From: Escherichia phage inny
Reading direction: 5' to 3' (one strand)
Length of the DNA stretch: 64,000 bases
Sequence record: MN850601.1
The notes under the pieces were generated by a model. That model ran no database searches, was not told where the DNA came from, and was given only the letters and a program-made list of their open reading frames with translations. The position numbers were made by a program, and so were the translations under genes. Numbering within the stretch: the stretch's first letter is position 1; each line of letters starts with the position of its first letter. This document shows positions 4,541 to 62,557 of this stretch, one piece after another.

Positions 4541-4541
4541 C

Positions 4542-5601: not shown

Positions 5602-5610
5602 AATACCTAC

Positions 5611-5952: not shown

Positions 5953-5954
5953 TA

Positions 5955-7143: not shown

Positions 7144-7209
7144 TTATTTTTCCTTTGTTTAAAATGTGTTAAACAATCGCAAATGCTCGTGACGCACTTT
7201 GTGATCCCA

Positions 7210-7578: not shown

Positions 7579-7931
7579 TATTCCCTCCTGTATAGCTCTG
7601 TAACGAGCTAATGGCCTTTAAGATATGCAATCACCTTACCTCACAGTAAAACTCGTTACAATCGTTTTTAGGAGGTTTAGGTTGTACTTAAAAATAATCT
7701 AAAAAGGTGTTGACAAACGCAAAAAAGTATGCTACCCTAACCCCCGAAAAACGCCGAGCGCAGCGAGGGGGTGTTATCTAATCTTGTGATACATGATCTA
7801 ACAGACAACTGAGTAGTCTACATATAGCACTATGTTATGTCTATAATACTAACATACATACTCTATACTAACAATAGATTCTTTATTAATTTTATTATTA
7901 ATTAAATAATAAATTAAATAATAAATATCTA

Positions 7932-7960
7932 TTGACTTTAGATCTATCTGTATGTAGAGT
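7932..7960 (+). promoter_or_regulatory. sigma70-like promoter TTGACT-N17-TGn-TAGAGT
   Basis: -35 at 7932..7937, TG at 7953..7954, -10 at 7955..7960; 40 nt upstream of the prs-like gene. Confidence 0.55.
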
Positions 7961-7999
7961 AGAGAACATAAAGTCCTAACTCAACTAAGGAGATAAACA

Positions 8000-8893: not shown

Positions 8894-8903
8894 ATAATAA
8901 GTG

Positions 8904-8932
8904 TTGACAATAGGGAGTATGCTTAGTAAGAT
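8904..8932 (+). promoter_or_regulatory. sigma70-like promoter TTGACA-N17-TAAGAT embedded in an 8-bp inverted repeat
   Basis: -35 at 8904..8909, -10 at 8927..8932; GGGAGTAT (8912..8919) and ATACTCCC (8930..8937) form a perfect palindrome across the -10. Confidence 0.55.
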
Positions 8933-8964
8933 ACTCCCACACTAACAAACAAGGAGACATAACT

Positions 8965-10698: not shown

Positions 10699-10719
10699 AT
10701 AAAAACTTCGTGATAAGAT
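10691..10719 (+). promoter_or_regulatory. sigma70-like promoter TTGACT-N17-TAAGAT overlapping the nadV stop
   Basis: -35 at 10691..10696, extended TG, -10 at 10714..10719. Confidence 0.5.
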
Positions 10720-10769
10720 TAAGGTAAGGAGAGCCTGCAACTGCCCTGGATGGGCTTCACGAAGGATTT

Positions 10770-10991
10770 ATGAAACAACATAATTTTTATTTTCGTTGCC
10801 GAGCCTGTAACAGACACTTGACTAATCATTCCCGTAGAGACAGGAATGGTAATATTCAAGAGTCGGATCTATGCTCGATTTGTACAAGTTTGGCATTCGA
10901 CGACAGTCCCGAAAGGGTTTATCAACATCAAAGTGTAACTGATCTTCTTCTAAATTACACAGCACCAGAGGAGGAATTAGATTTCACATAA
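10770..10991 (+). CDS. hypothetical zinc-ribbon protein (73 aa)
   Basis: ORF track; CRAC...CSIC cysteine pairs. Confidence 0.5.
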   Translation: MKQHNFYFRCRACNRHLTNHSRRDRNGNIQESDLCSICTSLAFDDSPERVYQHQSVTDLLLNYTAPEEELDFT

Positions 10992-11004
10992 TTAAGGAAA
11001 CAGT

Positions 11005-11115
11005 ATGTCTACAGAAATTATTTTTGGCTTATCTGTTTTTATTGCTATTGTATCTTTTGTATGCGGTTATACACTAGGTTACAGATCAAGAAAAAATATT
11101 GTAAAAACTAGTTGA
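11005..11115 (+). CDS. small hydrophobic protein (36 aa)
   Basis: unlisted short ORF; AAGGAAA SD 7 nt upstream of ATG; single hydrophobic helix IIFGLSVFIAIVSFVCGYTLGY. Confidence 0.3.
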   Translation: MSTEIIFGLSVFIAIVSFVCGYTLGYRSRKNIVKTS

Positions 11116-11141
11116 CAACATAGCTAGTTATTTGCTAAGAT
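11112..11141 (+). promoter_or_regulatory. sigma70-like promoter TTGACA-N18-TAAGAT
   Basis: -35 at 11112..11117, -10 at 11136..11141. Confidence 0.5.
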
Positions 11142-11171
11142 AAGCACAAGTTAAACAAAAAGGAGAAAACT

Positions 11172-11438
11172 ATGACAGAAAAGACTTATGGTAAAGAATT
11201 GATTGAGAAGCACGTATTGATTGATAATAAAGGTGGAGCAATCTTTATTTTTGAACCTGAATCAGTTCTTACTGAAAACGAAAATGGTAGCGTTAGCCTT
11301 AAAACAGAAAGTTTGGTAATTGACTTCCTTGCTCTTCTGGATGAAATGGGGCTTCCTCACGAAGAAGAAGCAGCTATTGCTTTGATTGCAGTTCTTCTGG
11401 AGAAACGCGAAGCTGGTGAAATGACCCAGTATGCTTAA
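11172..11438 (+). CDS. hypothetical protein (88 aa)
   Basis: ORF track; AAAGGAG SD. Confidence 0.55.
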   Translation: MTEKTYGKELIEKHVLIDNKGGAIFIFEPESVLTENENGSVSLKTESLVIDFLALLDEMGLPHEEEAAIALIAVLLEKREAGEMTQYA

Positions 11439-11445
11439 TATTCAA

Positions 11446-11521
11446 GGTTCCATAGCTCACTGACGAGAGCGCACACCTCATAAGTGTCGAGGGCAGGGAT
11501 TGTAACCCTGGGGAACCACCA
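11446..11521 (+). tRNA. tRNA-Met/Ile2-type (anticodon CAT), non-canonical T-loop
   Basis: hand-folded cloverleaf: acceptor GGTTCC/GGAACC, D-stem GCTC/GAGC, anticodon loop CTCATAA, encoded CCA; T-loop ATTGTAA (A54, T58) instead of TTCGAAT. Confidence 0.6.
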
Positions 11522-11552
11522 TTTAAAAGGAGGTGCTATGCATCTCCTATAT

Positions 11553-11638
11553 GCAAGTGTGGTGGAATTGGTGATACACATTGTGCTTAAAACGCAACGC
11601 TTAAATGATTGAGGGTTCGAATCCCTCCACTTGCACCA
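11553..11638 (+). tRNA. tRNA-Leu (anticodon TAA), type II
   Basis: acceptor GCAAGTG/CACTTGC, 3-bp D-stem, anticodon loop CTTAAAA, long variable arm, T-arm GAGGG-TTCGAAT-CCCTC, A73, CCA. Confidence 0.85.
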
Positions 11639-11640
11639 AC

Positions 11641-11746
11641 GCCTAGTAGGGTATTTGGTAATTCCGAGGCCATCAAAGCCTGAAAAATATGTTAGACCGT
11701 TTTGTCTAACTAAATACGAAATATGGTTCGATTCCATAACTAGGCT
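11641..11746 (+). tRNA. atypical 106-nt tRNA-like element (candidate anticodon TCA)
   Basis: perfect 7-bp acceptor GCCTAGT/ACTAGGC, D-like arm with GG loop, 4-bp stem with loop CATCAAA, extra 7-bp hairpin GTTAGAC-CGTTTT-GTCTAAC, canonical T-arm TATGG-TTCGATT-CCATA; no CCA encoded; too long for a standard tRNA. Confidence 0.3.
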
Positions 11747-11781
11747 CCCGATTTAAATAGTAATTTTTTAATAAAAATATC

Positions 11782-11810
11782 TTGACATTTACTTAGTTTT
11801 TTGTTATAGT
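11782..11810 (+). promoter_or_regulatory. sigma70-like promoter TTGACA-N17-TATAGT with extended TG
   Basis: -35 at 11782..11787, TG at 11802..11803, -10 at 11805..11810; 12 nt upstream of the tRNA at 11822. Confidence 0.6.
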
Positions 11811-11821
11811 CATTATGAAAA

Positions 11822-11903
11822 CGGGGTGTATCTCACCTGACTTCTAATCAGGCGTTAACCGAGTAATTGGAGTATGCAGGTTCGAATCCTGTCACCCCGG
11901 CCA
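11822..11903 (+). tRNA. tRNA-Arg-like (anticodon TCT) lacking a canonical D-arm
   Basis: acceptor CGGGGTG/CACCCCG, only 7 nt (TATCTCA) before a perfect anticodon arm CCTGA-CTTCTAA-TCAGG, 23-nt variable region with CCGA-GTAA-TTGG hairpin, T-arm GCAGG-TTCGAAT-CCTGT, G73, CCA. Confidence 0.45.
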
Positions 11904-11921
11904 AAAAGTTTTAAAAACTAC

Positions 11922-11951
11922 TTGACAAGCAAGATAGTTTTATGTTAGATT
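11922..11951 (+). promoter_or_regulatory. sigma70-like promoter TTGACA-N17/18-TTAGAT
   Basis: -35 at 11922..11927, TG then -10 around 11945..11951. Confidence 0.55.
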
Positions 11952-11966
11952 TAAAGTATGGTAACA

Positions 11967-12056
11967 GGAAGGTAGGGCGCAGCGGTGCGCAACCAGGTTT
12001 GAACCCTGGCCCATTGTAGCGATACGGTGATGGTTCGACTCCATTATCTTCCTCCA
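11967..12056 (+). tRNA. tRNA-Ser (anticodon TGA), type II
   Basis: acceptor GGAAGGT/ATCTTCC, anticodon arm CCAGG-TTTGAAC-CCTGG, 19-nt variable arm, T-arm GATGG-TTCGACT-CCATT, CCA. Confidence 0.85.
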
Positions 12057-12075
12057 AATTCGCTTAGGAGCTTTA

Positions 12076-12227
12076 TGAATTATAAAACTATTGGACAGAT
12101 TGTTACCGGAGTTAAGATTGTAAATAATAAAGTTGTTTATGAGTATTCTAATCTTCAACAATCTGAAGATGGTAAGAATATTCGTATGGTAAAAGCAGAA
12201 CAAAAAGATTCCGGTTGTTTTGAATAA
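12076..12227 (+). CDS. small hypothetical protein (50 aa)
   Basis: ORF track 12027..12227 starts inside tRNA-Ser; trimmed to ATG at 12076 behind TAGGAG SD. Confidence 0.3.
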
Positions 12228-12235
12228 TTAAGAAC

Positions 12236-12321
12236 GGTAGATTGGTGAAATGGTAGCCACAACAGTTTGCTAAACTGTCGTCGGAAACGGCGTGTAGGTT
12301 CAAGTCCTACATCTACCGCCA
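12236..12321 (+). tRNA. tRNA-Ser (anticodon GCT), type II
   Basis: acceptor GGTAGAT/ATCTACC, 3-bp D-stem GTG/CAC, anticodon arm ACAGT-TTGCTAA-ACTGT, long variable arm, T-arm GTAGG-TTCAAGT-CCTAC, G73, CCA. Confidence 0.85.
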
Positions 12322-12377
12322 AGTTATCTTTAATGTAGCTTGTTGCTCTTAGTTGCTTGGTGTAACTTTTTGGAAGG

Positions 12378-12439
12378 ATGGCTGCAACCATCTTACTTTA
12401 ATAGAGTAAACTTTCGGCAGATGGCCCCCACCATCTTAC
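12378..12439 (+). repeat. two near-identical hairpins (GGATGG-loop-CCATCTTAC), spaced about 45 nt
   Basis: 12378..12397 AAGGATGG-CTGCAA-CCATCTT and 12422..12439 AGATGG-CCCCCA-CCATCT; both followed by TTAC; stems resemble the T-stem of the upstream tRNA-Ser. Confidence 0.5.
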
Positions 12440-12491
12440 CGATACCTCATAGTTAGTGGTGCGAACACTGGCTATTTTAAAGATAATTTAT

Positions 12492-12567
12492 ACATCGTTA
12501 GCTTAGTTGGTAGAGCAAGGGGCTTTTAACTCCAAGGTCGAAGGTTCGAATCCTTCACGATGTACCA
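12492..12567 (+). tRNA. tRNA-Lys (anticodon TTT)
   Basis: perfect acceptor ACATCGT/ACGATGT, D-arm GCTT-AGTTGGTA-GAGC, anticodon loop CTTTTAA, T-arm GAAGG-TTCGAAT-CCTTC, A73, CCA. Confidence 0.8.
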
Positions 12568-12572
12568 AACAC

Positions 12573-12659
12573 GTAGGTATCGCATAGCGGCAATTGCTGG
12601 AGACTGTAAATCTCCTGCCCTTCGGGGCTTCGTTGGTTCGAGTCCAACTACCTGCACCA
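12573..12659 (+). tRNA. tRNA-Tyr (anticodon GTA), type II
   Basis: acceptor GTAGGTA/TACCTGC, anticodon arm GGAGA-CTGTAAA-TCTCC, variable hairpin GCCC-TTCG-GGGC, T-arm GTTGG-TTCGAGT-CCAAC, A73, CCA. Confidence 0.85.
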
Positions 12660-12666
12660 AATTAAA

Positions 12667-12751
12667 GATGGATTGGCCTAGTGGTTGGGCGACGGACTGT
12701 TAATCCGTGAACGAAAGTTCTAGCAAGGTTCAAATCCTTGATCCATCGCCA
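12667..12751 (+). tRNA. type II (Ser-like architecture) tRNA with anticodon GTT (Asn-type)
   Basis: acceptor GATGGAT/ATCCATC, 3-bp D-stem GCC/GGC, perfect anticodon arm ACGGA-CTGTTAA-TCCGT, 15-nt variable arm with GAAC-GAAA-GTTC hairpin, T-arm CAAGG-TTCAAAT-CCTTG, G73, CCA. Confidence 0.7.
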
Positions 12752-12830
12752 AATAGTGCTTGTAGAGTTAATAGAAACCTCTAGAATTTTCTAGAATTGT
12801 AGGTATCAAATCCTACCAAGCAAATATTTT

Positions 12831-12905
12831 GCTCCTATCGTATAACGGCTATTACGGTTGCCTTGTAAGCAACTTATCAGGGTTCGAGTCCTTGTGGGAG
12901 CACCA
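12831..12905 (+). tRNA. tRNA-Thr (anticodon TGT)
   Basis: acceptor GCTCCTA/TGGGAGC (one G-U), anticodon arm GTTGC-CTTGTAA-GCAAC, T-arm CAGGG-TTCGAGT-CCTTG, A73, CCA. Confidence 0.8.
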
Positions 12906-12927
12906 ATTTAACTCTAAAGGAGTGTAT

Positions 12928-13251
12928 GTGACAGAAAAAGAGTTAGAGAAATATTTTAATATCAATGTTTTCGATGGTTTTGATGATATTGAAGATGTTG
13001 AAAGATATTATGAAGTAGAGTTAGATAAGGATAACATTGTAATTCTTTCTGCCACTTATGATTGTGCATATTATGAAGGCGAATCTCACGTTTATTTCTA
13101 TGATATGAAAACATCTTTGTTTTATGAAGTACACGCATATCATTGTTCTTGTTATGGCTTAGAAGGTCAGTGGGAACCTGAAGAAATAGGTGATTTGAGC
13201 TTTACGGTTGCATATCTAAACAGACGTGGTGCATCTACTATTTTAAAATAA
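12928..13251 (+). CDS. hypothetical protein (107 aa)
   Basis: ORF track 12829..13251 begins inside tRNA-Thr; trimmed to GTG at 12928 behind AAGGAG SD. Confidence 0.5.
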   Translation: MTEKELEKYFNINVFDGFDDIEDVERYYEVELDKDNIVILSATYDCAYYEGESHVYFYDMKTSLFYEVHAYHCSCYGLEGQWEPEEIGDLSFTVAYLNRRGASTILK

Positions 13252-13265
13252 ATATTAAAAGCCTC

Positions 13266-13295
13266 TTGACAAAGGGGCTAATAATATGTTAGAGT
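13266..13295 (+). promoter_or_regulatory. sigma70-like promoter TTGACA-N18-TGT-TAGAGT
   Basis: -35 at 13266..13271, TG at 13287..13288, -10 at 13290..13295; upstream of tRNA-Gly. Confidence 0.55.
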
Positions 13296-13306
13296 AATAT
13301 TGTTAA

Positions 13307-13381
13307 GCGGGTATAGTGTTAATGGTAGCATATGAGGTTTCCACCCTCCAGGTGCAGGTTCAAGTCCTGTTACTCGCTCCA
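13307..13381 (+). tRNA. tRNA-Gly (anticodon TCC)
   Basis: acceptor GCGGGTA/TACTCGC, anticodon loop TTTCCAC, T-arm GCAGG-TTCAAGT-CCTGT, U73, CCA. Confidence 0.8.
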
Positions 13382-13480
13382 AGATTATTTAAATGGAATC
13401 GCTAGAGAAAATTTCTCTTTTCGCTCATGGTTTTCTCCTTCAAACTCTAGCGGTTCTTTTTAAGTGATTTTTAGTTTTAT

Positions 13481-13555
13481 TGGAGATTAGCCTAGTGGGA
13501 AGGCAACGGCCTTTGAAGTCGTGATGACTAGGTTCGATTCCTAGATCTCCAGCCA
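13481..13555 (+). tRNA. tRNA-Gln (anticodon TTG)
   Basis: acceptor TGGAGAT/ATCTCCA with U1-A72, D-arm GCC-TAGTGGGAA-GGC, anticodon arm ACGGC-CTTTGAA-GTCGT, T-arm CTAGG-TTCGATT-CCTAG, G73, CCA. Confidence 0.8.
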
Positions 13556-13562
13556 ATATTTA

Positions 13563-13638
13563 CAGTGCGTAGCGCAGTTGGTAGCGTGGGAGCCTTGGAC
13601 GCTTCAGGTCGCAGGTTCGAGTCCTGCCGCACTGACCA
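13563..13638 (+). tRNA. tRNA-Pro (anticodon TGG)
   Basis: acceptor CAGTGCG/CGCACTG, D-arm GCGC-AGTTGGTA-GCGT, anticodon arm GGAGC-CTTGGAC-GCTTC, T-arm GCAGG-TTCGAGT-CCTGC, A73, CCA. Confidence 0.85.
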
Positions 13639-13643
13639 AATTT

Positions 13644-13718
13644 GCAGAGATAGCTGAGACGGATTAGTGCTACCCTGAAAAGGTAGAAAGGATGGATCGT
13701 TACCATCTCTCTGCACCA
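13644..13718 (+). tRNA. tRNA-Phe (anticodon GAA), non-canonical T-loop
   Basis: perfect acceptor GCAGAGA/TCTCTGC, perfect anticodon arm CTACC-CTGAAAA-GGTAG, T-arm GATGG-ATCGTTA-CCATC (A54 and T58 swapped relative to consensus), A73, CCA. Confidence 0.7.
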
Positions 13719-13795
13719 GATAACACCATCCAAGGAGAATACTTGGTTAACTGTCAATAGCACATTGAGGCTTCTTACAGTGGTGTACTTATTAT

Positions 13796-13880
13796 GGCTA
13801 AGTGGTGGAATGGTATACACGATACGCTTAGAACGTATTGCCCCAAGGGATTGTGAGTTCGAGTCTCACCTTAGCTACCA
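13796..13880 (+). tRNA. tRNA-Leu (anticodon TAG), type II
   Basis: acceptor GGCTAAG/CTTAGCT, 3-bp D-stem GTG/CAC, anticodon arm ATACG-CTTAGAA-CGTAT, variable hairpin, T-arm GTGAG-TTCGAGT-CTCAC, A73, CCA. Confidence 0.85.
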
Positions 13881-13895
13881 AATTATTACAGGTTT

Positions 13896-13974
13896 CGCGG
13901 GATAGAGGAGTCTGGTCGTCCTCGCCAGTTTCATATGCTGGAGATCGTAGGTTCAAATCCTACTCCCGTTACCA
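13896..13974 (+). tRNA. tRNA-Met/Ile2-type (anticodon CAT), second copy, unpaired 1-72
   Basis: acceptor CGCGGGA/TCCCGTT with C1 opposite U72, D-arm GAGG-(11 nt)-CCTC, anticodon arm CCAGT-TTCATAT-GCTGG, T-arm GTAGG-TTCAAAT-CCTAC, A73, CCA. Confidence 0.65.
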
Positions 13975-14032
13975 ATAAATACCTCCCTTCTGGTGTAATG
14001 ATTAAATTACATTGACACTTCAAGGAACTCAT

Positions 14033-14115
14033 AGCCGGGTAGATTTAAAAGAGTATGGTACTCAATATGGCTCCAAACCATAGATCAGGGGGTTCGATTC
14101 CTCACCTTGCTGCCA
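14033..14115 (+). tRNA. tRNA-Trp-like (anticodon CCA) with expanded D region
   Basis: anticodon arm TATGG-CTCCAAA-CCATA, T-loop TTCGATT, G73, CCA; best acceptor AGCCGGG/CCTTGCT has one C-U mismatch and leaves about 9 extra nt before the D-stem GAGT/ACTC. Confidence 0.4.
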
Positions 14116-14120
14116 ATTAT

Positions 14121-14196
14121 TGTGGTATCGTACAGATGGTTAGTACACTCGACCGATAATCGAGAAACAACGGTTCGACTCCGTTTACCACGACCA
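14121..14196 (+). tRNA. tRNA-Ile (anticodon GAT)
   Basis: acceptor TGTGGTA/TACCACG, D-arm GTAC-AGATGGTTA-GTAC, anticodon arm CTCGA-CCGATAA-TCGAG (C33), T-arm AACGG-TTCGACT-CCGTT, A73, CCA. Confidence 0.75.
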
Positions 14197-14310
14197 AACT
14201 CCGTGCCAGCGGTGTCTTCGAAGAACAAGCCTAGTTCCTTCTGAGATGGAGGGGTGCGACTCCTTAACGCACAACATACTACTACTACTAAATACTTATC
14301 AGGAGATATC

Positions 14311-14580
14311 ATGTATACTTTAAAAGTAATTCGCAAGTTTCCTCAAGAAGAGGAAGTAAGAATTTATAACACTGTACCATTCGTAGTAAATGAAGAAGAA
14401 TTCTTTTATTGCTTAGAAGATGAAGTAATTATTCAATATCATTGGGAAGGTTACGACAGACAAGATGGTGTTGTAGCTTCTGTGCTTGCTGGTGACAGAG
14501 TGTTATTCATTCACAAAACTGAATCAGCATATTTAATGAATGATAAAGGACAAACTGTTAAAGTAATTAACAGACCATAA
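14311..14580 (+). CDS. hypothetical protein (89 aa)
   Basis: ORF track 14254..14580 trimmed to ATG at 14311 behind AGGAG SD. Confidence 0.5.
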   Translation: MYTLKVIRKFPQEEEVRIYNTVPFVVNEEEFFYCLEDEVIIQYHWEGYDRQDGVVASVLAGDRVLFIHKTESAYLMNDKGQTVKVINRP

Positions 14581-14593
14581 AGAATTTTATAAA

Positions 14594-52111: not shown

Positions 52112-53059
52112 TTAGAAACAGTGCAGGAAGTTTCGACCATACTGCAAACCAATAGGAGCAAATGGGATATCATCATCGAAATCTTGAACAACAGGTTCTG
52201 GTTCTTTCGGTGCTGGTTCTTTCTTCTCTACTTTTTTAGTTTCTTTCTTAACTTCTTGTACTGGGGTAGACATTCCACGGATAGCAGCAGCTACTTTATC
52301 AGACAAAGCAAGAACTTCACGAGCAGCTTCAATAATCTCTTCTGCCGTTACAGTTTTACCTGTATGATCACGACAAGCGTTAAGAATTGCGTGTCCAACT
52401 GAAGCACCAAGATCATAGTCAGTCACATCAACGCCACGATCTTTAGCAATTTCTGCTTTCAGAGTAACAGTTGCAGATTGTACCACACCAGCCAAGTCGA
52501 AAGCATCACCTTTCACACCAGCACGTAGAAGCTCCAGAGCGCCGTTTACAGCGTGTCCTGTTTCAATCCCTACGGTATCACGTTTTTTGTAGTTAGGCTT
52601 GCTACCTTCGTTATTAGATGGCTTATTTCCACCTTTTGAAGAAGATTGTGCTTGCTGAACACCTTCTGTTGAAAGAATAGTGATTTTACCTTTAGAGGAA
52701 TTGTAGTATGTTTTGCCATTCCATTCAGAAGGTTTAACATCCATAGTTAGTTCTACACCTTTTTCGATAGTAACCCACTTATCACCATCTTTAACTTGCA
52801 GGTTTTCATGTTCTGGGTGCAGTTTAACTTCACCTAGGCTAACCCAAACACCTTTATCATCAGCACCAGCACCTTTCTCTTTAATAAGCAGGGATGCTTT
52901 GTGAGTTGATTCAATTTTCTTATCTGGTTGACCTGCAACCTTAATATAAGAGACTTTCATTTCATCAAACTTATCCAGTTTGACATATTCAACGATACCT
53001 TCAGCCCAGAATGCTTCTTTTTTAGTACGACGGTCGATTTCAGAATTAATTACTGGCAT
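52112..53059 (-). CDS. putative single-stranded DNA-binding protein
   Basis: 315 aa; acidic DFDDDIPF motif (classic SSB tail) 15 residues from the C-terminus; Gly/Ser/Asn-rich linker; replication-module context. Confidence 0.5.
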   Translation of the reverse strand: MPVINSEIDRRTKKEAFWAEGIVEYVKLDKFDEMKVSYIKVAGQPDKKIESTHKASLLIKEKGAGADDKGVWVSLGEVKLHPEHENLQVKDGDKWVTIEKGVELTMDVKPSEWNGKTYYNSSKGKITILSTEGVQQAQSSSKGGNKPSNNEGSKPNYKKRDTVGIETGHAVNGALELLRAGVKGDAFDLAGVVQSATVTLKAEIAKDRGVDVTDYDLGASVGHAILNACRDHTGKTVTAEEIIEAAREVLALSDKVAAAIRGMSTPVQEVKKETKKVEKKEPAPKEPEPVVQDFDDDIPFAPIGLQYGRNFLHCF

Positions 53060-53075
53060 AAATTCTCCTCTATAA

Positions 53076-53474
53076 TTACATTACTTTAACACAAAACTCT
53101 CGTAAAAGAGTAGCGTCAGTTTCTTCCAACAGGTATTTACCAAGACCAATACCAAATCCTATTTCACCACTTTCGAAATGGAGGATTTGTATCTTTTCTC
53201 CACCAAGATTAATTACTTTTGCTTTTCCAGGATTATCCAAAACATCTCGTATTGTATCCTGTAGTAACATAAGCTCACGTTTTGTGATAGTGGTTTCAGA
53301 TATCTCTTTGTTTTCTACTCTCACTGTTAAACGATTGTATCCACCAAAGAGACATAGTATTTGAATAAAAAAGGTATTATCTTGAGGTTCAACATCTTTT
53401 TTGGTTAGCTCAAGACGATTAGTTTCTCTACTGTAGAACGTCTCGACTAAGATTTTAGAACGATTATCTGTCAT
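53076..53474 (-). CDS. hypothetical protein (132 aa)
   Basis: ORF track. Confidence 0.5.
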   Translation of the reverse strand: MTDNRSKILVETFYSRETNRLELTKKDVEPQDNTFFIQILCLFGGYNRLTVRVENKEISETTITKRELMLLQDTIRDVLDNPGKAKVINLGGEKIQILHFESGEIGFGIGLGKYLLEETDATLLREFCVKVM

Positions 53475-53517
53475 TCAAGTCCTCATAATAACACATAATT
53501 ATAATGTTTGTCAACAC

Positions 53518-54111
53518 TTAAATTTTAAATTCTTCATTGTTAAATGAATCCAGTGTACGTACTTCTGGTTCTTTGGGAATGAAAACGTCTTTTACAAAAC
53601 GGAACATAGGGAAACGTTCTGCCATTTTACGGACGTGTGCTTCTTTACCCGTGTATCGGTGATTAATAGTACAAATATTAGTTTTCAGTGCAAATTCAAA
53701 ATCTGGATGATATACGTAATTTTGACCATCCCAGTAACACAAGCAAATAGCTACATCAAAGTTCCATACGATTTCACTGCGTACACCTTCTTCCATGATC
53801 ATAAAGTTAAACTTAAGATCTTTATAGTATGCTTCAAATACCCATTTCAAATGTGGTAGTTCGGCATAAGTGTGTTCTGTTTGCTTAGTAAGTTGTTTAA
53901 CATTACGTGCACCAACACCCAACATCAAAAATTTCTCTACTAGTACGAGTGTATTGTGGTTAGGCATACGCAAGTAAATATCAATATCTTGCGCAGGTTT
54001 CTCTAATCGCCAGTCACGTACAGCGCCGCCAGCTACAATTGCAAACGGATCTACCAGTTGGCACATACGTAATACTTCTAAAGCTCGTACTTTTTGATCT
54101 TCAATATTCAT
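53518..54111 (-). CDS. Pol-beta-superfamily nucleotidyltransferase, CCA-adding-enzyme head-domain-like
   Basis: 197 aa; N-terminal IVAGGAVRDWRL...DIDIYL matches the GG(A/S)VRD...DxD motif of class II tRNA nucleotidyltransferases. Confidence 0.5.
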   Translation of the reverse strand: MNIEDQKVRALEVLRMCQLVDPFAIVAGGAVRDWRLEKPAQDIDIYLRMPNHNTLVLVEKFLMLGVGARNVKQLTKQTEHTYAELPHLKWVFEAYYKDLKFNFMIMEEGVRSEIVWNFDVAICLCYWDGQNYVYHPDFEFALKTNICTINHRYTGKEAHVRKMAERFPMFRFVKDVFIPKEPEVRTLDSFNNEEFKI

Positions 54112-54250
54112 ATTTTCTCCTATCTCTTATGGTCTTTGCGTTATTCTAGATGTTCAAACATCTAATTATGAAATGGTTTAAAAGTGCGGAACAACCTTGG
54201 CAATCACAGATTGTTCCACATAAAAACTCCTTATAAAACAATATGTTAGA

Positions 54251-56830
54251 CTAGTGACAAGACGCCCATGAGTTACCAACATCGTAACCAGCAGTGAGAG
54301 GTACATTAAGATTGTAATACTCACCAGCTTTATTAACAGCGATAGATGCTAATTCTCCAGCACGACTGTAGGCTGTAAACCAACCACCTTTCGGAGATTC
54401 ATGTACGTTAGCCCAAATCTTGCCAGTACGTTTCTCTTCCTCTTCTTTCCAGGCATTAACCTTATCCAAACATTCTTTATCAATTTTCTTTTGTTCTTCT
54501 GGATCATCAACTTGAGTCCAACCTAAAGATTCTTTAGAAAACCATTTAAAATGCACCAGATCACGAGTTACTTCAAGCTGTGCTTCATCGTGATATGCAA
54601 TCATTTGTTGAACGAATGACTTATTTTTCCAGTCATCAACAAAAAAGTCAACAGCTAATCCTTCTTCTTCGATAAGATCGTCGTAGATAACCATTGCTCT
54701 TTTTGCACAAATAACACCACCACTCTGGAACAGAGAGTTAAGTATTGCGTGTGCAGATCGTGTAGGTACTTTTCTACCATCAATACCAAGAATGTATTTC
54801 TTACCTGTTTTAACCCAAAAATCATGCAGACGTTCTTTAAGAAGCGCAAGAGGTTTTGCAGCTTCCCAGAAAGCATCGTATACAAGTTGTCCTGTATACA
54901 TATCACTACCTATAGTTTTTGCTACTTTTGCAGCTTGAGCACCATAAGTAATACCATACTTAACAGATTTAGCAGGGCTTCGTTCAAACTTACGACCAAT
55001 AGTGTCAGAAATACGTCGAGCCATCATTGTATGAACATCATTAGGTTTTTCCAATAATAGAGCATTACAATATTCGTGTGGTTCCTGCTCGTACCGCCAA
55101 CAGTAGTGTGATTCTATTTTTGCCTCAAGAGAATCAAAGTCATAACCAATTTGGAAGTATTTTGGAACTTCTACACCAAATAAGTTACGCATTTCATATC
55201 CGTACAGAGATGTTACACGTGGGATATTTGCTACTAACCTATGTTTCATACGAGACGTAGCTGCATCACACGTTGCAGCAGGGGTTGGTATACGACCATC
55301 AGCCCTTACTGCCGCCAGATAACCTTTATCGTAATCCTCTTCATCTTCTTCCCAATCAGCACCACCACCTAGGATAGAGTTTCTACGATGTTTATACGTA
55401 AGATATTGCACAATCTGCGTAGCATAAGGAAACTTTTCACCCAGTGCTTCCAAGTTAGGACAAATATCTTTCTCTTGCCCTTTTGTAAAGGAAGGGTTAG
55501 TAAGCACTTTAACACCACGACCTTTAGCTTTAGCAATACGATCTCTTAGTTTCCATTCCAAAGTTTCTGGTGTGCACTCCAGATGATCACATCTGTCCTG
55601 GCAGAAGTTAGATGCTAATGTTTGATCAACATAGTCACGAATAGCTTTCTCCATTTGTGCTTCATCTTTCTTAATCTTAGTGCCAGATTTAAGAGTGATA
55701 TCTTTATCTTTATATTCAGATGGACTCCAACCTAAACCAACTAACCAGTTTTTAATATGTGTAGTGTCGTCTAAAGTAGCAGGTACTGTAGGATCACAAA
55801 TAGGTTCTTCTGCTGGAATAGGGAGTTTAAACTCTTTACCTAATGCAAATAGCCACCAACCATCTTCTTTTTGTACAAGTTCACCAGAATGTTTCTCTGC
55901 AAACTTTATCATGTTACTTGAAGGTTCACCATTCTTTTTAAACTGTAGTTTAGGTGGAATGAATGATTTCAAATAACCTTTAGTAGCAGGTTTAGGAGGT
56001 AACACAGGTTCTGCCTCTAAACGACATGCTTCCATTCGAGCATCCAGATCACGAATATTATCTTCTGCTTGTTTCATATTGAAAGCAAAGCCACGGTGCT
56101 CTTGACGTGTAATAATATCAGCTACACGTTGTTCTAAGTTAAAGGGTTCAGACCATTTATTATAATCACCCCACTCTTCCATCAAATAACGGAATACTGC
56201 GGTGTTAGCTTTGTTATCGTAAATACAGTAATACAGCATATCTGCTGCAAATGTTTTAAATCTTTCAGTTTCAGGAATGTTTTTTCTAAAATCAATTTTA
56301 ACATCCCCTCCAGCTTTCTTAGATAACTCTGCCAGACTATGACCACCGAAGCGATCAGGGTTTAGTGTCTTACTTAAGATCATAGTATCACAAATTTCAA
56401 TGTTACTATTACCCCAAGTATTGTACTTAATACTGTAGTTGAGTTTAAAAAATAATTTAATTGCCAGTAAGTCAAAGTTAATGATGTTATGTCCAACTAC
56501 TTTGGTAATTTTATAGTTTGAATTACCTTTAAATTTACCTGTTCCATTTACAAAATCAGGAAAATCTTTAAGAGGGAAATGGGTATATTCTAAATGCTCA
56601 TATTCCTCCAGTCGGTATTCATACTTTCCGTCAGTCTCAACATACGGACGACCATCGAAAAGATATTTATCACCATCATGGAAAGCAATAATCTCTCCAG
56701 TATCATGACTTTCGCACACAATACAGTGCATTGCAAAACTATCTTTTAAACGATATGGACTTGCCAAGTAATCTACACTTTCGTCATTAAGCAAGTTGTT
56801 ACTTTCAATGTCGAAAGTAAAAGCTCCCAT
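54251..56830 (-). CDS. DNA polymerase, family A, with 3'-5' exonuclease domain
   Basis: 859 aa; Exo I FDIES near N-terminus; motif B KSVKYGITYGA and motif C YHDEAQLE. Confidence 0.9.
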   Translation of the reverse strand: MGAFTFDIESNNLLNDESVDYLASPYRLKDSFAMHCIVCESHDTGEIIAFHDGDKYLFDGRPYVETDGKYEYRLEEYEHLEYTHFPLKDFPDFVNGTGKFKGNSNYKITKVVGHNIINFDLLAIKLFFKLNYSIKYNTWGNSNIEICDTMILSKTLNPDRFGGHSLAELSKKAGGDVKIDFRKNIPETERFKTFAADMLYYCIYDNKANTAVFRYLMEEWGDYNKWSEPFNLEQRVADIITRQEHRGFAFNMKQAEDNIRDLDARMEACRLEAEPVLPPKPATKGYLKSFIPPKLQFKKNGEPSSNMIKFAEKHSGELVQKEDGWWLFALGKEFKLPIPAEEPICDPTVPATLDDTTHIKNWLVGLGWSPSEYKDKDITLKSGTKIKKDEAQMEKAIRDYVDQTLASNFCQDRCDHLECTPETLEWKLRDRIAKAKGRGVKVLTNPSFTKGQEKDICPNLEALGEKFPYATQIVQYLTYKHRRNSILGGGADWEEDEEDYDKGYLAAVRADGRIPTPAATCDAATSRMKHRLVANIPRVTSLYGYEMRNLFGVEVPKYFQIGYDFDSLEAKIESHYCWRYEQEPHEYCNALLLEKPNDVHTMMARRISDTIGRKFERSPAKSVKYGITYGAQAAKVAKTIGSDMYTGQLVYDAFWEAAKPLALLKERLHDFWVKTGKKYILGIDGRKVPTRSAHAILNSLFQSGGVICAKRAMVIYDDLIEEEGLAVDFFVDDWKNKSFVQQMIAYHDEAQLEVTRDLVHFKWFSKESLGWTQVDDPEEQKKIDKECLDKVNAWKEEEEKRTGKIWANVHESPKGGWFTAYSRAGELASIAVNKAGEYYNLNVPLTAGYDVGNSWASCH

Positions 56831-57326: not shown

Positions 57327-59099
57327 TTAATAAGAACCAGCAGAAATATTTTCTGGGTTACTTGTGTATTGATCGTAATCGTGAAGTGTAGCTGTTTTAA
57401 TCTCATAAAAGAAACTACCTGCTGCACCAGTCTCTGAAAACTCACGGTTCTTTAGAATGTAGCAATATGTGCGGTTACGTTCCATAGGATCTTCAGCTTG
57501 TTTATCACGCTCCAGCGCAATTGTGATACCAGCACCTTTAGCAAGGAAGCTACTACCCATTGCATCATCTTCTACAATATGTTCATTACTATTGTTAGAA
57601 GACTTTTTAACGTGTGAAATTACAACAATGGTTATTGCGTACTCTTTCATAATGCGTTTCAGCCACGTCGCAAGTTCCTCTTGTTGTGACACGTCCATAC
57701 CAGAAAGCAAGTCAGAATAAGGGTCGATAACAAGAATGGTTACTCCGAAATAAATAATCATTTCCAGAACCTTCTCTTTAATCACATCTACGTTAGCTCC
57801 ACGATCATCACAAACATAGAAACGTGGTGTTCCATCTTCTCGTTCGTAAAAATCACGAATCTTTTCTTCATTATCTTTTAAAATCTTTTCCTTCTCTTCT
57901 TTCGTTTTACGGTGAAGAGGGATATGCAAGAATGAAGACAGTAAGTTACGAGAATACTTCTTATACGTTGCCTCCAAAGATAAAATACCAAGAGTATGTT
58001 CTGGGTGTGCAAGAATAATGTGTTTCGTAATCTCGTTAACCAACAGTGTCTTACCGATACTTGTTTTTGCAAGTATAACAGTAATTTCTTCTTCTACCAA
58101 GCCTCCACCTAACATATTTGAAGCAACACGCATGAATGGAGGAAGGGTGATCATTTTAGCTTCCAGGCATTCCAAGGCTGCTTCATACAGTACGTTAGAA
58201 GCGTAAACACCAGCAGGTGTGTACAGTTTAGCTTTGAAAAAGCGATCAATAAAATGATCAATTTTTCCTTCTACTAGTGCCTGGTTAGGATCTTTAACAT
58301 CAGTTAGTTCCATCACGTAAACTTTATTACGTGGTAAGATTTTAACACATTTCTCAACTGCTGCACGTCCAGCTTCATCATTATCCATACATAGAACAAT
58401 CTTTTTAAATTGGTCTAAGAATTTATAACGATGTTGAAGCTGCTTATGCAGAGATGTTTCGCCACAAGTACCAGATACTACAGCAGGAACAGGATATTTA
58501 CCACCCTTGTTATAATCTTTTAGCATCTGTGTTGCAGCCAGCATATCGTGTTCACCACCAACGATTAGAATAGTACCGCTGTGGTTACGATATTTAAACT
58601 CCCCAAAAAGATCACAATCCTTTCCTGTTTCACCGATAGGATGTGAGAAATCTTTTGGATCGATACGTTGTTTATACCCAGCAATATTGTAATCTTTAGT
58701 TGTAGGGTATAGTGTTGAAATTACTTCGCCAGTAGCTTCATCGTACATATAACGTACACCGAAAGGCTTAGAGATATCTTCACGAATACCGCGATAACCT
58801 TTTGGATTAGTTCCAGTGCTGGCTTTTAGTTTATCATGTACTTCTGGATTAAACTCACTACCCAAGATATCCTCCTCTTCAATTTCTTCGCCGTGTGCAT
58901 TTAACCATTTTTGATCAGGGATAGTAAAGCCACAAGAAAAACAATGTGCGCCTCGATGGTCTTCATCGGCATCTAAGCCATATACCATCAAATTGTTTTG
59001 TGATCGATCACGCCCTCCTTTCATACAACGAGGACACCCAGTATGTCCTTCTTGACTCAGATCAATGTTATACCCATATTTATTTACAACATAAGACAC
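57327..59099 (-). CDS. DNA primase-helicase (zinc-ribbon plus DnaB-like P-loop helicase)
   Basis: 590 aa; N-terminal CPRC...CFSC zinc ribbon; Walker A AKTSIGKT; Walker B-like VLVIDPYSD. Confidence 0.8.
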   Translation of the reverse strand: MSYVVNKYGYNIDLSQEGHTGCPRCMKGGRDRSQNNLMVYGLDADEDHRGAHCFSCGFTIPDQKWLNAHGEEIEEEDILGSEFNPEVHDKLKASTGTNPKGYRGIREDISKPFGVRYMYDEATGEVISTLYPTTKDYNIAGYKQRIDPKDFSHPIGETGKDCDLFGEFKYRNHSGTILIVGGEHDMLAATQMLKDYNKGGKYPVPAVVSGTCGETSLHKQLQHRYKFLDQFKKIVLCMDNDEAGRAAVEKCVKILPRNKVYVMELTDVKDPNQALVEGKIDHFIDRFFKAKLYTPAGVYASNVLYEAALECLEAKMITLPPFMRVASNMLGGGLVEEEITVILAKTSIGKTLLVNEITKHIILAHPEHTLGILSLEATYKKYSRNLLSSFLHIPLHRKTKEEKEKILKDNEEKIRDFYEREDGTPRFYVCDDRGANVDVIKEKVLEMIIYFGVTILVIDPYSDLLSGMDVSQQEELATWLKRIMKEYAITIVVISHVKKSSNNSNEHIVEDDAMGSSFLAKGAGITIALERDKQAEDPMERNRTYCYILKNREFSETGAAGSFFYEIKTATLHDYDQYTSNPENISAGSY

Positions 59100-59111: not shown

Positions 59112-59381
59112 CTAAAATGATTCGTTTGTCTCCATAATATATTGCATTTCCAAATCTTCCATATGTTTCTTAAATTGGTAAACAATTTCCGATGGGGAAA
59201 TATCTATATCAAAAAGTTCTTTTGTACCAGAATAAAATCTAATACCATCAACAATAAGACCACCATAATAATCCCAATCACTTTCTCGTGAGAAAGGGTT
59301 AGGTTCTTCATAATAGTAATCTACTTCAACAATAATAGGTTCTTTATTATCTTGTTTATACTCAAAATCAAAAGTGTTCAT
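59112..59381 (-). CDS. hypothetical protein (89 aa)
   Basis: ORF track. Confidence 0.45.
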   Translation of the reverse strand: MNTFDFEYKQDNKEPIIVEVDYYYEEPNPFSRESDWDYYGGLIVDGIRFYSGTKELFDIDISPSEIVYQFKKHMEDLEMQYIMETNESF

Positions 59382-60325
59382 TATAAATCCTCGATAAGCA
59401 GTCTGCGGGTTTCATTTAAATCATCAATATTGTAGTTATCTCTTACATACTTAGCAAGAGCCAATCCCTTCTCAATACAAACATCAGGAGATTCGATTAA
59501 GTATTCTACAATATCTTTCCACTCTTTAACTGAATCAGCAAAGAAGATTAGATCTTTAAATTCTTCAGTATAATAGTTCTCTCGTGGTGAACAAACGAGT
59601 GGCAAACCTTTAGCACCAGCTTCAAGAATTTTTAAATTACTTTTGGCATTATTAAAATGATTATTTACTAATGGAGCTATGGAGATTTGATGACCATCGT
59701 ATGCTTCCATATAACACTCATAAGGACGAATACCTTCATAAACACAATCTGGTTGAATATCTTCTTTAATTTGCAACCATTGAGCACTACTTAACTCTTC
59801 GTGATCTCTACGAAATCCACATAAAGTTAAATCTTTACCAAAACCAGGAAGAATTGCTAAATCATGTTTATGTGTTTCACTTCCCGCCCAAACTAGTGGA
59901 CTTTTAGAATAACGGTCTTTCGTAAGAACAAACTGTCCTTCATCAAAAGGTAATCCGTTAGGCACAATATGTACATTATCATTGTATTGGCTTAATTCAA
60001 CCTTTAATGCCGGAGTTGTTGTAGTTACAAGATCGCTTCTTTCAAGGAACCATTTTAGGTCATCTCGGATTTGATTTTCAAATAGTCCTTCAAGCATATG
60101 CCCTTCAGGAATAATTAAAGAATCATCCAGATCCATTACCAATTTAAACCCAAGTTGTTTAAGAGCCAGGAAACCTGGCTTTCCACGTGTTGGTACTCCA
60201 TTGAACACAAAAATATTATGCTTAGGATTAATTGTCAGTTTGCGTTTATATGGCAAAATGATTCTATGAAAATCACATATACTATACTTTTCATTTCCGC
60301 GTGTGTCAAGAATAATATTAGGCAT
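59381..60325 (-). CDS. glycosyltransferase-like protein, paralogue 1 (GT-B-like)
   Basis: 314 aa; shares blocks with the next gene (VFNGVPTRG / VFNRVYSRG; KSNLKILEAGAKGLP identical in both; C-terminal YNxxDxNExRR). Confidence 0.5.
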   Translation of the reverse strand: MPNIILDTRGNEKYSICDFHRIILPYKRKLTINPKHNIFVFNGVPTRGKPGFLALKQLGFKLVMDLDDSLIIPEGHMLEGLFENQIRDDLKWFLERSDLVTTTTPALKVELSQYNDNVHIVPNGLPFDEGQFVLTKDRYSKSPLVWAGSETHKHDLAILPGFGKDLTLCGFRRDHEELSSAQWLQIKEDIQPDCVYEGIRPYECYMEAYDGHQISIAPLVNNHFNNAKSNLKILEAGAKGLPLVCSPRENYYTEEFKDLIFFADSVKEWKDIVEYLIESPDVCIEKGLALAKYVRDNYNIDDLNETRRLLIEDL

Positions 60326-60336
60326 ATATCTCCTTG

Positions 60337-61350
60337 TTAAAGACTTTCAATAACTTGACGACGCAGTTCATTGGCATCTGCAAGATTATAATTAAGACGA
60401 ACGTGTTCTGCAAGCATCATACCACGATCTTCTGTGTATCTAGGGTTCCTCATTAGCTTGACAACTTCATAATGCCAAGATGCTTTAGAGTCTGCATAGA
60501 TAACAGCCTTTGCATCTACCGGATTGAAGTACGGCAGCACAGGAGAACAGATAATAGGAAGACCCTTTGCACCTGCTTCCAAAATCTTCAAATTGCTTTT
60601 ACAGTTGTTGAAGTCATTATCTACCAGGGGAGCAATTGCAATACTGTGACCGTCATACACAGACATATACTCACCTAAATTTTTAATAGCTGGTTTATAC
60701 TGTGCATTTGGAATCTTACGTTTTATTTTAACCCACTCCGCAGTAGTTAGATACTGACTATTATTTCCAACAGGTGCAGAAGGATACACTTCATACCCTG
60801 CAATTGTCAATAGTGTATCATCAAATGTATTAGCTACAAGAGATAAATCAGGTTCGTGGCTTGCTCCTCCAGCCCAGATAATAGGCGTGTCAGAATTACG
60901 GTCTTTTGTCAAAGTAAATTGACCTTCGTCGTAAGGTAGTGCGTTTCTAATAACGACAACATTACGATTTAAATGACGAATTTTGTAAGCTAGGTATTCT
61001 GTTGTTACAGTAACAACATCTGCTAACTTGACCATCTCTACAATAGTCTTTGAGTGATTAGTAAATACGCCAGCCATATAATGTTCAGGATTAAGTGAAT
61101 AAAAATCATCTAAATCAACAATAATCTTAACACCTTGTGCCTTCAGGCGTTTAACCTCGTCTGCTCCACGAGAATACACTCTATTAAAAACTAAAACGTC
61201 TTTCTTAGGTTTAAACGTATTTCCAGCAAATGGCATTACAATACGATGGTAATCACAACCACTGCCTAACTTATTATCACACTTAAGTACAGGAGTATTA
61301 GGATTTACCATATTTTTGAGCCTCCTCATAAGAGATAAAAGTTTTACCAT
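60337..61350 (-). CDS. glycosyltransferase-like protein, paralogue 2 (GT-B-like)
   Basis: 337 aa; tandem paralogue of 59381..60325 with conserved KSNLKILEAGAKGLP block. Confidence 0.5.
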   Translation of the reverse strand: MVKLLSLMRRLKNMVNPNTPVLKCDNKLGSGCDYHRIVMPFAGNTFKPKKDVLVFNRVYSRGADEVKRLKAQGVKIIVDLDDFYSLNPEHYMAGVFTNHSKTIVEMVKLADVVTVTTEYLAYKIRHLNRNVVVIRNALPYDEGQFTLTKDRNSDTPIIWAGGASHEPDLSLVANTFDDTLLTIAGYEVYPSAPVGNNSQYLTTAEWVKIKRKIPNAQYKPAIKNLGEYMSVYDGHSIAIAPLVDNDFNNCKSNLKILEAGAKGLPIICSPVLPYFNPVDAKAVIYADSKASWHYEVVKLMRNPRYTEDRGMMLAEHVRLNYNLADANELRRQVIESL

Positions 61351-61984
61351 TGCGAAGATCCTCCAGTGATTGTTTATATTGTTCCCAGTTTACACCAATC
61401 CCCTGTTCTTTCTCTTCTTTTGACAGATTCGCAAAAGGTAAAGGATTATCTCCAAATACATCATCAGGATGGATAAACGCCATAATTCGAATAGGACATG
61501 GCACGCCTTGAATACCTCGGTTCAAACCTGCCAGTGGAACGCGATGAATCCACTCTGCATCTTCATATCCATAACCGTGGGTGTATGAGCGGAAATAGCC
61601 AGCTTTCTCAATAACTGCACGGGAATACATACCAAACTGGCACATACCTAGTTCCCAAATAACCACTTCCCCTTCAATACCTTTTACTTTATCTTTAAAG
61701 TATTCAGGCATACCAAAGAAATCCCAACCATTTTCCTTCGCCTGTTTTACAAAATATGTTTCCCAACCTTGAACAACAGGATAGCAATCATCATCAAAAA
61801 TAAACCAGTAATCATACCCTTCATCATAAAACTTTTTCATCAGTTCATTACGAGCATATGCAACACCTTTTCGTTCACGATCATACTGTACAACAAAAGT
61901 AGCATTAGGATCAGTCACAAGATAATCTTTAAGAGGACGCTTACCTACAGTAATAACACCAACACCAATTTTTGTATTTTCCAA
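61298..61984 (-). CDS. glycosyltransferase, GT-A-like with DxD motif
   Basis: 228 aa; N-terminal GVGVITVGKRP nucleotide-binding start and WFIFDDDCYP acidic motif. Confidence 0.55.
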   Translation of the reverse strand: MENTKIGVGVITVGKRPLKDYLVTDPNATFVVQYDRERKGVAYARNELMKKFYDEGYDYWFIFDDDCYPVVQGWETYFVKQAKENGWDFFGMPEYFKDKVKGIEGEVVIWELGMCQFGMYSRAVIEKAGYFRSYTHGYGYEDAEWIHRVPLAGLNRGIQGVPCPIRIMAFIHPDDVFGDNPLPFANLSKEEKEQGIGVNWEQYKQSLEDLRNGKTFISYEEAQKYGKS

Positions 61985-61993
61985 AATAACTCC

Positions 61994-62557
61994 TTAAATA
62001 ATTTTATTCATGTCTTGACAATGTAAAAGGTGTGAAACAGCTTTTCTAGGATCATCATTACCTAAACGGTAGGTGTGAAATAAATATAACCCACGTAATA
62101 AACCTAGCCTTTTGTTGTTAGCATGTAATGCTTTAGAGAAAATTATATCAAACTGTATTGACCTTTCCTCAAAAGGGATTTCATTCCACAGACTCTTACG
62201 AAAGAGAAGAAAGAATCCTGCTAAGATAGCATCTGTAGGTACTTCCTCTATTGAGTTTCCCCATTCTAGATGTGCTCTTTTTGCAATCTCAATGTGGTGT
62301 AATATATTCGGATCTTCACTTCTTTCATTATTAAATAATTGATATGTTGATCCCAATCTGTTACAAGATGCACCAAGAACATCAAAATCAGGATTTGAAC
62401 GGACAATTGATTCCAGCCAAGCAGGTTGTTCTGGAAGAAGAAACATTGTATCAATGTCTCTTAGGCAAATCCAACTATCTTCTGGTAAGACACTTATTGT
62501 GTCATTGATACCTTTTCCAATATCTCCAGAAAGATAGGGAGTTATGTGAAATATCAT
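61994..62557 (-). CDS. hypothetical protein, possible fourth sugar-transfer enzyme
   Basis: 187 aa; CLRDIDTMF DxD-like motif; co-oriented with the three glycosyltransferase genes. Confidence 0.35.
   Translation of the reverse strand: MIFHITPYLSGDIGKGINDTISVLPEDSWICLRDIDTMFLLPEQPAWLESIVRSNPDFDVLGASCNRLGSTYQLFNNERSEDPNILHHIEIAKRAHLEWGNSIEEVPTDAILAGFFLLFRKSLWNEIPFEERSIQFDIIFSKALHANNKRLGLLRGLYLFHTYRLGNDDPRKAVSHLLHCQDMNKII

Follow-up and report, generated by a model that had tools for sequence, protein, structure and literature searches.

What does a nucleotidyltransferase of fewer than 200 residues do among the DNA replication genes of a lytic phage? We address this question for Escherichia phage inny (sequence record MN850601.1), in a stretch of 64,000 nucleotides referred to below as the window, where a small protein carries the GGAVRD...DID head-domain signature of class II tRNA nucleotidyltransferases. 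The original prediction, made from the sequence, described a minimal CCA-adding-enzyme-like protein that could repair or mature the phage tRNAs, or else be a minimal nucleotidyltransferase of another specificity.

The gene and its locus

The coordinates, the 197-aa length and the motif given in that prediction were correct, and the gene lies on the minus strand, between the genes for DNA polymerase A and a protein likened to single-stranded DNA-binding protein (SSB), so that its placement in a replication block also holds. The features of the gene and its surroundings are as follows.

53518..54111, minus strand: coding sequence with ATG start, 197-aa stand-alone class-II-type nucleotidyltransferase
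54117..54121, minus strand: ribosome-binding site AGGAG, 5 nt before the ATG, read from the sequence and likewise annotated in phi92
54251..56830, minus strand: DNA polymerase A, 859 aa (PF00476), upstream neighbour
57327..59099, minus strand: primase-helicase (Toprim_2 + DnaB_C), 590 aa, in the same co-directional gene block
53076..53474, minus strand: 132-aa conserved protein (phi92 gp157), no Pfam match, downstream neighbour
52112..53059, minus strand: 315-aa protein, called SSB in the records of some relatives, no Pfam match

The block runs in the order primase-helicase, an ORF of 130-174 aa whose start is ambiguous, polymerase A, nucleotidyltransferase, 132-aa ORF, SSB-like gene and methyltransferase, and 10 related loci have the 132-aa and 315-aa downstream proteins along with the nucleotidyltransferase. 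At 53485-53514 on the minus strand lies a putative sigma-70-type promoter that is close to the consensus (TTGACA-18-TATTAT and an extended TG, with 11 of 12 positions matching) and is a consensus match only. It aims at the 132-aa gene, and its -35 hexamer begins 4 nt after the first base of the nucleotidyltransferase stop codon; the nucleotidyltransferase gene may therefore end a transcription unit.

The source phage is a phi92-like E. coli myophage (Justusliebigvirus, Stephanstirmvirinae), and the stretch of about 5 kb around the nucleotidyltransferase gene shares 99.0% identity with phage ALITA and 98.6% with phi92. The protein is phi92 gp158 (YP_009012490.1), which is labelled 'nucleotidyltransferase' there, and 100%-identical proteins are present in several published phages. 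Homologues in Phapecoctavirus, which are 37% identical, carry the label 'putative tRNA nucleotidyl transferase / poly(A) polymerase'. Because the phi92 and Phapecoctavirus genomes label the homologues in this way, the observation of a nucleotidyltransferase is already on record at the annotation level; the gene is annotated in dozens of phi92-like and rV5-like genomes, with a Pfam and a PHROG family. The widely copied label 'tRNA nucleotidyltransferase / poly(A) polymerase' over-interprets the fold of the head domain.

Predicted fold and active site

The structure was predicted with AlphaFold from a 95-sequence alignment (pLDDT 86.8, pTM 0.82), a model that replaced one made from 3 sequences, which gave a pLDDT of 63 and was discarded. 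About 175 residues are ordered in the model, and the C-terminal tail is disordered. Foldseek comparison with the PDB returned only class II nucleotidyltransferases among the 35 matches at E<=0.001 (top 37 overall), the best being E. coli poly(A) polymerase I (PAP I) and CCA-, CC- and A-adding enzymes, with E-values of about 1e-5 and TM-scores of about 0.55 over 164-202 columns, or about 0.3 when normalised to the target. These targets are 344-517 aa long, and at 197 aa the inny protein is indeed, as had been remarked, far shorter than cellular enzymes. The model thus shows a class-II-type Pol-beta head domain followed by one neck helix, with about 175 structured residues in all. A 'CCA-adding-enzyme-like head', the name originally given to it, is a fair description of this predicted fold. 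Antibiotic nucleotidyltransferases and cGAS/DncV-like enzymes, which the original prediction had named as the competing assignments, are ruled out by Foldseek as the closest structural class.

Searches by sequence reached less far. Searching the PDB with the single protein gave nothing significant, and the family profile matched only motif A of CCA-adding enzymes among the PDB sequences (E 0.003). PADLOC gave no family for the inny protein, and the NCBIfam CCA models scored far below their cutoffs. The stand-alone 'CCA-adding enzyme head domain' of S. pneumoniae (NP_344798.1, PDB 2la3) differs in being cellular and is just 10% identical to the inny protein. The class II tRNA nucleotidyltransferases and bacterial PAP I (PF01743) differ in that the inny protein is half their size and lacks their body and tail.

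The residues and segments that bear on catalysis, with the tail, map as follows.

54010..54033, minus strand: first half of motif A, A27-G-G-A-V-R-D-W34 (GG turn, R32, D33, invariant W34), conserved columns
53974..53988, minus strand: second half of motif A, D42-I-D44-I-Y46, with two predicted metal-binding aspartates, D42 and D44, both invariant
53833..53835, minus strand: E93, candidate third catalytic carboxylate, on strand 88-96 of the AlphaFold model, its catalytic role being putative
53626..53628, minus strand: K162, in the last helix (158-166), K in 118 of 121 homologues, role putative
53521..53580, minus strand: C-terminal tail, aa 178-197, predicted disordered (pLDDT <50) and missing in most homologues (sparse alignment columns)

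Across 121 homologues with 21-47% identity to the inny protein, G28, G29, W34, D42 and D44 are invariant, and A27, A30, R32 and D33 are at least 90% conserved. Since its key residues are kept to this degree in such divergent proteins, the match to motif A is no accident. The DxD of the inny protein aligns with the DxD of CCA-adding enzymes and with that of the phage protein Gad2. Position 93 is more variable, with E in 75, D in 12 and N in 15 (12%) of the 121 sequences. Helix 158-166 occupies the place that the first neck helix has in class II enzymes. Column statistics for the 121 sequences define a family signature of Q6, A10, AGGAPRDW, DxDxY, G67, Y82, V91-x-E93 and Q102, continued in the C-terminal part by F118, S121, C123, F138, Y153, K162 and F167-P168.

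Is the enzyme a tRNA end-repair enzyme?

The fold invites the reading that the head domain restores damaged CCA ends of phage or host tRNAs and so complements the kinase, phosphatase and Rnl1 proteins of the phage. In class II enzymes, motif B (RRD) recognises the ribose and triphosphate, and the amino acids of motif D (EDxxR) act as a template for CTP and ATP; in the CCA-adding members the tRNA is bound and measured by the body and tail domains. Motif A (GGxVRD...DxD) of the head domain is present as G28-G-A-V-R-D33 and D42-I-D44. At the place of motif B, however, the inny protein reads W116-N-F-D119, with no arginines, and residues 116-119 vary across the family, D119 being found in 26 of 121 members. 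Motif D is represented by E157-A-H-V-R161, which lacks the Asp, and conservation of residues 157, 158 and 161 is seen neither in the family nor in a 48%-identical homologue. The correspondence of motifs B and D was set by the order of secondary-structure elements in the AlphaFold model and the known order of the motifs in class II enzymes, not by residue-level superposition. Body and tail domains are absent because the protein ends after the first neck helix, its structure stopping near aa 175. With the tRNA-measuring domains and the nucleotide-templating motifs both missing, ordered C-C-A synthesis is not expected.

Profile comparisons point the same way. The check proposed with the original prediction, a search with the Pfam PolyA_pol profile (PF01743), gave a match that is real but stays below threshold (19.1 bits, against a gathering threshold of 23) and covers aa 26-81 only; the profile was found in only 17 of the 121 family members even at E<=0.01. 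When the 121-homologue profile was compared by hhalign with E. coli Cca, just 25 columns aligned (24% probability), and 51 columns (58%) aligned with PcnB. Sequence similarity to CCA-adding and PAP enzymes stops past motif A, after about 50 residues.

The genome does show an investment in tRNA biology that favours end repair. There are 15 tRNA genes in a cluster at 11446-14196 on the plus strand, and the RNA-repair cassette that had been predicted at 3203-5093 exists, consisting of a kinase, an Rnl1-type ligase and a phosphoesterase, with a DNA ligase gene nearby.

1346-2509, minus strand: ATP-dependent DNA ligase
3203-3607, minus strand: P-loop AAA_33 kinase
3608-4540, minus strand: T4 Rnl1-type RNA ligase
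4542-5093, minus strand: calcineurin-like metallophosphoesterase

Further support comes from MenT-type minimal enzymes, which act on tRNA ends, and from one relative in which RtcB is encoded 3 kb from the gene. Cleavage of tRNA tails is a known immune mechanism, that of Cas12a3 (PMC12851939), and a variant of the repair reading is that the enzyme might counter defences that clip tRNA tails. Against it, all 15 tRNA genes encode their own 3' CCA and the host E. coli supplies its own cca. Some 39 kb separate the nucleotidyltransferase gene from the tRNA cluster, some 48 kb separate it from the repair cassette, and the RNA ligase is 49 kb away. Within a 6-kb range in related loci, tRNA genes were near the gene in 5 of 80 cases and an Rnl1-like ligase in 1 of 80, the conserved partners being replication proteins. 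The complete 46.9-kb genome of Vibrio phage 402E50-1 has a family member and zero tRNA genes. No characterised minimal CCA-like enzyme from a phage came up in our literature searches. The proposal that the protein repairs or matures phage tRNAs thus finds no support in motifs B and D, in the domain make-up or in linkage to tRNA genes, and we regard it as unlikely. RlaP, the RNA-ligase-associated nucleotidyltransferase (PF10127), was also considered as an identity for the protein and was rejected for want of a Pfam match and of ligase adjacency.

A short branch of the Gad2 family

The second part of the original prediction, a minimal nucleotidyltransferase of another specificity, proved the better reading. 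The precomputed Pfam match of the exact protein, and of its 99%-identical cluster, is PF26128 'Gad2', a family that takes its name from the anti-Gabija protein Gad2 (Gabija anti-defence 2); we checked the link behind this precomputed label independently by BLASTP and hhalign. For this we used an experimentally verified Gad2 homologue from Brevibacillus, with its sequence taken from the supplement of bioRxiv 10.1101/2023.05.01.538930. BLASTP aligned the inny protein to it with an E-value of 1e-5 over 117 aa, and hhalign of the family profile gave 92% probability. With a profile built from 35 true Gad2 proteins, the hhalign probability was 95.2% (E 2.5e-8, 112 columns), the alignment being limited to the nucleotidyltransferase domain (Gad2 aa 25-140). 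True Gad2 proteins also carry PF26128 and are mostly 385-450 aa long (range 355-474). The PHROG assignments overlap likewise: the inny protein matches phrog_1614 'nucleotidyltransferase' over its full length (E 2e-34, aa 7-193) and phrog_4400 weakly (7.5e-4), and true Gad2 proteins match both phrog_1614 (7e-6) and phrog_4400 (3e-29).

By these sequence comparisons the inny protein is homologous to Gad2 in the nucleotidyltransferase domain only. Both are encoded by phages or prophages, and they share an AGG...DxDxY(F) core and an F-D-x-x-(I/V)-C segment. They differ in that Gad2, at about 400 aa, has a C-terminal region of about 250 aa that is missing in the inny protein, in that Gad2 reads GGTITSLF where the short-form family reads GGAPRDW, and in the candidate third carboxylate, which is the invariant D107 in Gad2 and E93 in inny. 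Their settings are also distinct: Gad2 belongs to a gad1/gad2 anti-defence locus of temperate Firmicutes phages and prophages, whereas the inny gene is part of a replication module and is not in an anti-defence island. The inny gene is thus a short, replication-linked branch of the Gad2 nucleotidyltransferase family.

Bacillus phage SPbetaL7 becomes sensitive to Gabija when its gad2 is knocked out, and Gabija is blocked by a homologue; the SPbetaL7 gad2 allele is itself toxic (bioRxiv 10.1101/2023.05.01.538930). Anti-Gabija activity has been tested for the long form only, namely SPbetaL7 Gad2 and the Brevibacillus homologue (bioRxiv 10.1101/2023.05.01.538930), and a 2026 review describes the mechanism of Gad2 as still unsolved (PMC12904381). 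The inny protein, as a soluble enzyme of about 190 aa from an E. coli phage, would offer an easier handle on Gad2-type substrates than the toxic 400-aa Bacillus protein.

Related small phage nucleotidyltransferases

Klebsiella phage fHe-Kpn01 encodes a protein of similar size, Gp22 (182 aa, record 8894-9442), whose gene lies directly after that of DNA polymerase A, with a 4-nt overlap with its end. Gp22 belongs to phrog_1614 (E 1e-39) and shares with the inny gene its position downstream of polymerase A, whereas the two proteins resemble each other directly in motif A only (19 aa by BLASTP, E 0.002; 28 columns by hhalign). Because of this restriction, Gp22 is treated here as probably a sister family, not the same family. 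Unrelated phages thus repeatedly encode a small head-domain enzyme immediately behind polymerase A. The structural neighbours in BFVD include many phage 'poly A polymerase head domain' proteins of 165-215 aa, among them those of T7-like phages.

These relatives bear on the possibility that the enzyme is a promiscuous, poly(A)-polymerase-like RNA-tailing enzyme for host shut-off, adding 3' tags to host mRNAs or tRNAs that lead to their decay or inactivation. RNA-binding tailing enzymes are typically basic, and PAP I has a basic C-terminal RNA-binding region. That region is missing here and the pI of the family is near neutral (median 6.3), although the hhalign comparison reached further on PcnB than on Cca. 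Toxicity on overexpression would fit tailing, and it is seen in fHe-Kpn01 Gp22, which is toxic when expressed in E. coli (PMC7291057), in Emajogi gp22 (annotated as Gad2 family) and in SPbetaL7 Gad2. The toxicity of Gp22, however, appears at high induction only, in a protein that resembles the inny one in motif A alone, and tailing has no evident tie to the inhibition of Gabija. We hold this reading to be unlikely.

Small Pol-beta-superfamily enzymes with a counter-defence role are also known from the same phage subfamily, namely the MNT-like enzymes of BCP1 and Av05 described by Ho et al. They belong to another clade and carry the signature GS-x-AY[GAN]T-x4-SDxD, which the inny protein lacks; a loosened form of the pattern matched none of the reading frames longer than about 100 codons in the window. 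The cyclic-dinucleotide-synthesising enzyme of Ho et al., considered because AntiDefenseFinder lists Atd1 in Justusliebigvirus, was rejected on its catalytic signature.

The same comparison concerns a reading in which the inny protein acts on small molecules and disables a host defence that senses nucleotides, through a nucleotide-derived product such as a dinucleotide or an adenylylated or capped metabolite. Cheng et al. are said to have found in 2021 that the Gabija nuclease is regulated by nucleotides, which favours this reading, as do the near-neutral pI and the lack of a recognisable nucleic-acid-binding domain. Phage enzymes that make competitor cyclic dinucleotides do exist, including in the related phage Av05 (bioRxiv 10.1101/2022.06.09.495361). 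Yet the signature of such enzymes is missing from the protein and from the whole window, and the characterised class II enzymes all use a polynucleotide primer, so we consider action on small molecules improbable.

Distribution and genomic context

A single-sequence, word-indexed homologue search gave 2 matches, and an exhaustive profile search was used instead. It returned 997 cluster representatives at E<=1e-3 and 280 at E<=1e-10 (clusters at 50% identity), so that the short Gad2 branch is very large, at about 1000 clusters. Nearly all members are stand-alone proteins of 175-230 aa. The N- or C-terminal extensions of 10 longer members contain no recognisable Pfam domain, and fusions therefore give no functional clue. 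Among 185,579 bacterial and archaeal species, with one genome each, there were 12 loci, all on MAG contigs, and some of these contigs, of about 130-147 kb, are likely mis-binned phage. The short form is for practical purposes confined to phages, and almost always to lytic ones.

Context was sampled in IMG/VR, from 80 loci that fall into 56 lineages at 80% identity. Most often, the neighbours in these loci were T7 gp4-like primase-helicase, family A DNA polymerase, HNH homing endonucleases and 5'-3' exonuclease. Counted by lineage, a primase-helicase was found within 6 kb in 38 of 56, a polymerase in 37 and either of them in 43, and the primase-helicase and polymerase neighbours were co-directional with the nucleotidyltransferase in 105 of 109 cases. 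Vibrio phage ICP1_2006_A presents a different arrangement: its homologue (record 3959-4541) matches the N-terminal 126 residues only, is recorded as two short ORFs of 139 and 60 aa, and lies near genes for DNA ligase, PRPP synthetase and nadV, not in a polymerase module.

Tight co-directional linkage to primase-helicase, polymerase A and 5'-3' exonuclease genes, along with the recurrence in fHe-Kpn01 of a place directly downstream of polymerase A, would be expected if the enzyme were an accessory of T7-type replisomes that adds untemplated nucleotides to genome ends or primers in normal replication, without a defence role. Most phages with T7-type replisomes do without the gene, however, which gives it the look of an accessory; in KP34, for example, which is related to fHe-Kpn01, the stretch from primase through the RNA polymerase gene (record 5000-22000) contains no family member. 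The fold class, moreover, is RNA-specific in all known cases. A purely replicative role on DNA therefore appears very improbable to us, and the linkage to replication genes could stem from shared timing, not shared function.

Proposed function

We favour by a little over an even chance the reading that the inny protein is an active nucleotidyltransferase of Gad2 type that serves counter-defence or host takeover, and not tRNA CCA synthesis. The gene would be expressed together with the replication genes. D42, D44 and probably E93 would form a Mg2+-dependent active site for the template-independent transfer of a nucleoside monophosphate, donated by an NTP or dNTP, to a 3'-OH, and the outcome would be a role in counter-defence or host takeover, as with Gad2. 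By analogy, the acceptor would most likely be a nucleic-acid 3' end, whether of host RNA, of tRNA or of DNA, because every characterised class II enzyme, to our knowledge, tails an RNA 3'-OH using a polynucleotide primer. Anti-Gabija activity specifically is a tentative proposal, which we place well short of an even chance.

A more far-reaching version would join the Gad2 relationship with the replication linkage: short-form Gad2-type enzymes may be a widespread accessory of T7-type replisomes. They would tail or cap 3' ends at genome termini or on replication intermediates and so conceal them from host nucleases that sense ends, such as Gabija. We rate this as a long shot. If it were true, it would reveal the mechanism of Gad2 and would add a branch acting on DNA to the class II nucleotidyltransferases, which are otherwise specific for RNA. 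As phi92-like phages are candidates for phage therapy, any anti-Gabija function would also bear on the prediction of host range.

Other features of the region

Upstream of the primase-helicase gene, at 59381-62557 on the minus strand, four probable glycosyltransferase genes stand in a row (phi92 gp163-166), one of which has a weak precomputed match to PF20691 TAGT; their target may be DNA, capsule or another substrate. The DNA polymerase gene also differs between relatives, with 859 codons in inny (54251-56830) and 1104 in phi92 (record 11250-14564). The phi92 match is interrupted by an insertion of about 730 bp, at a place labelled 'DNA polymerase, part I' or HNH endonuclease in other relatives, and this sequence comparison suggests that the insertion in the phi92 polymerase gene is a mobile element without a counterpart in inny.
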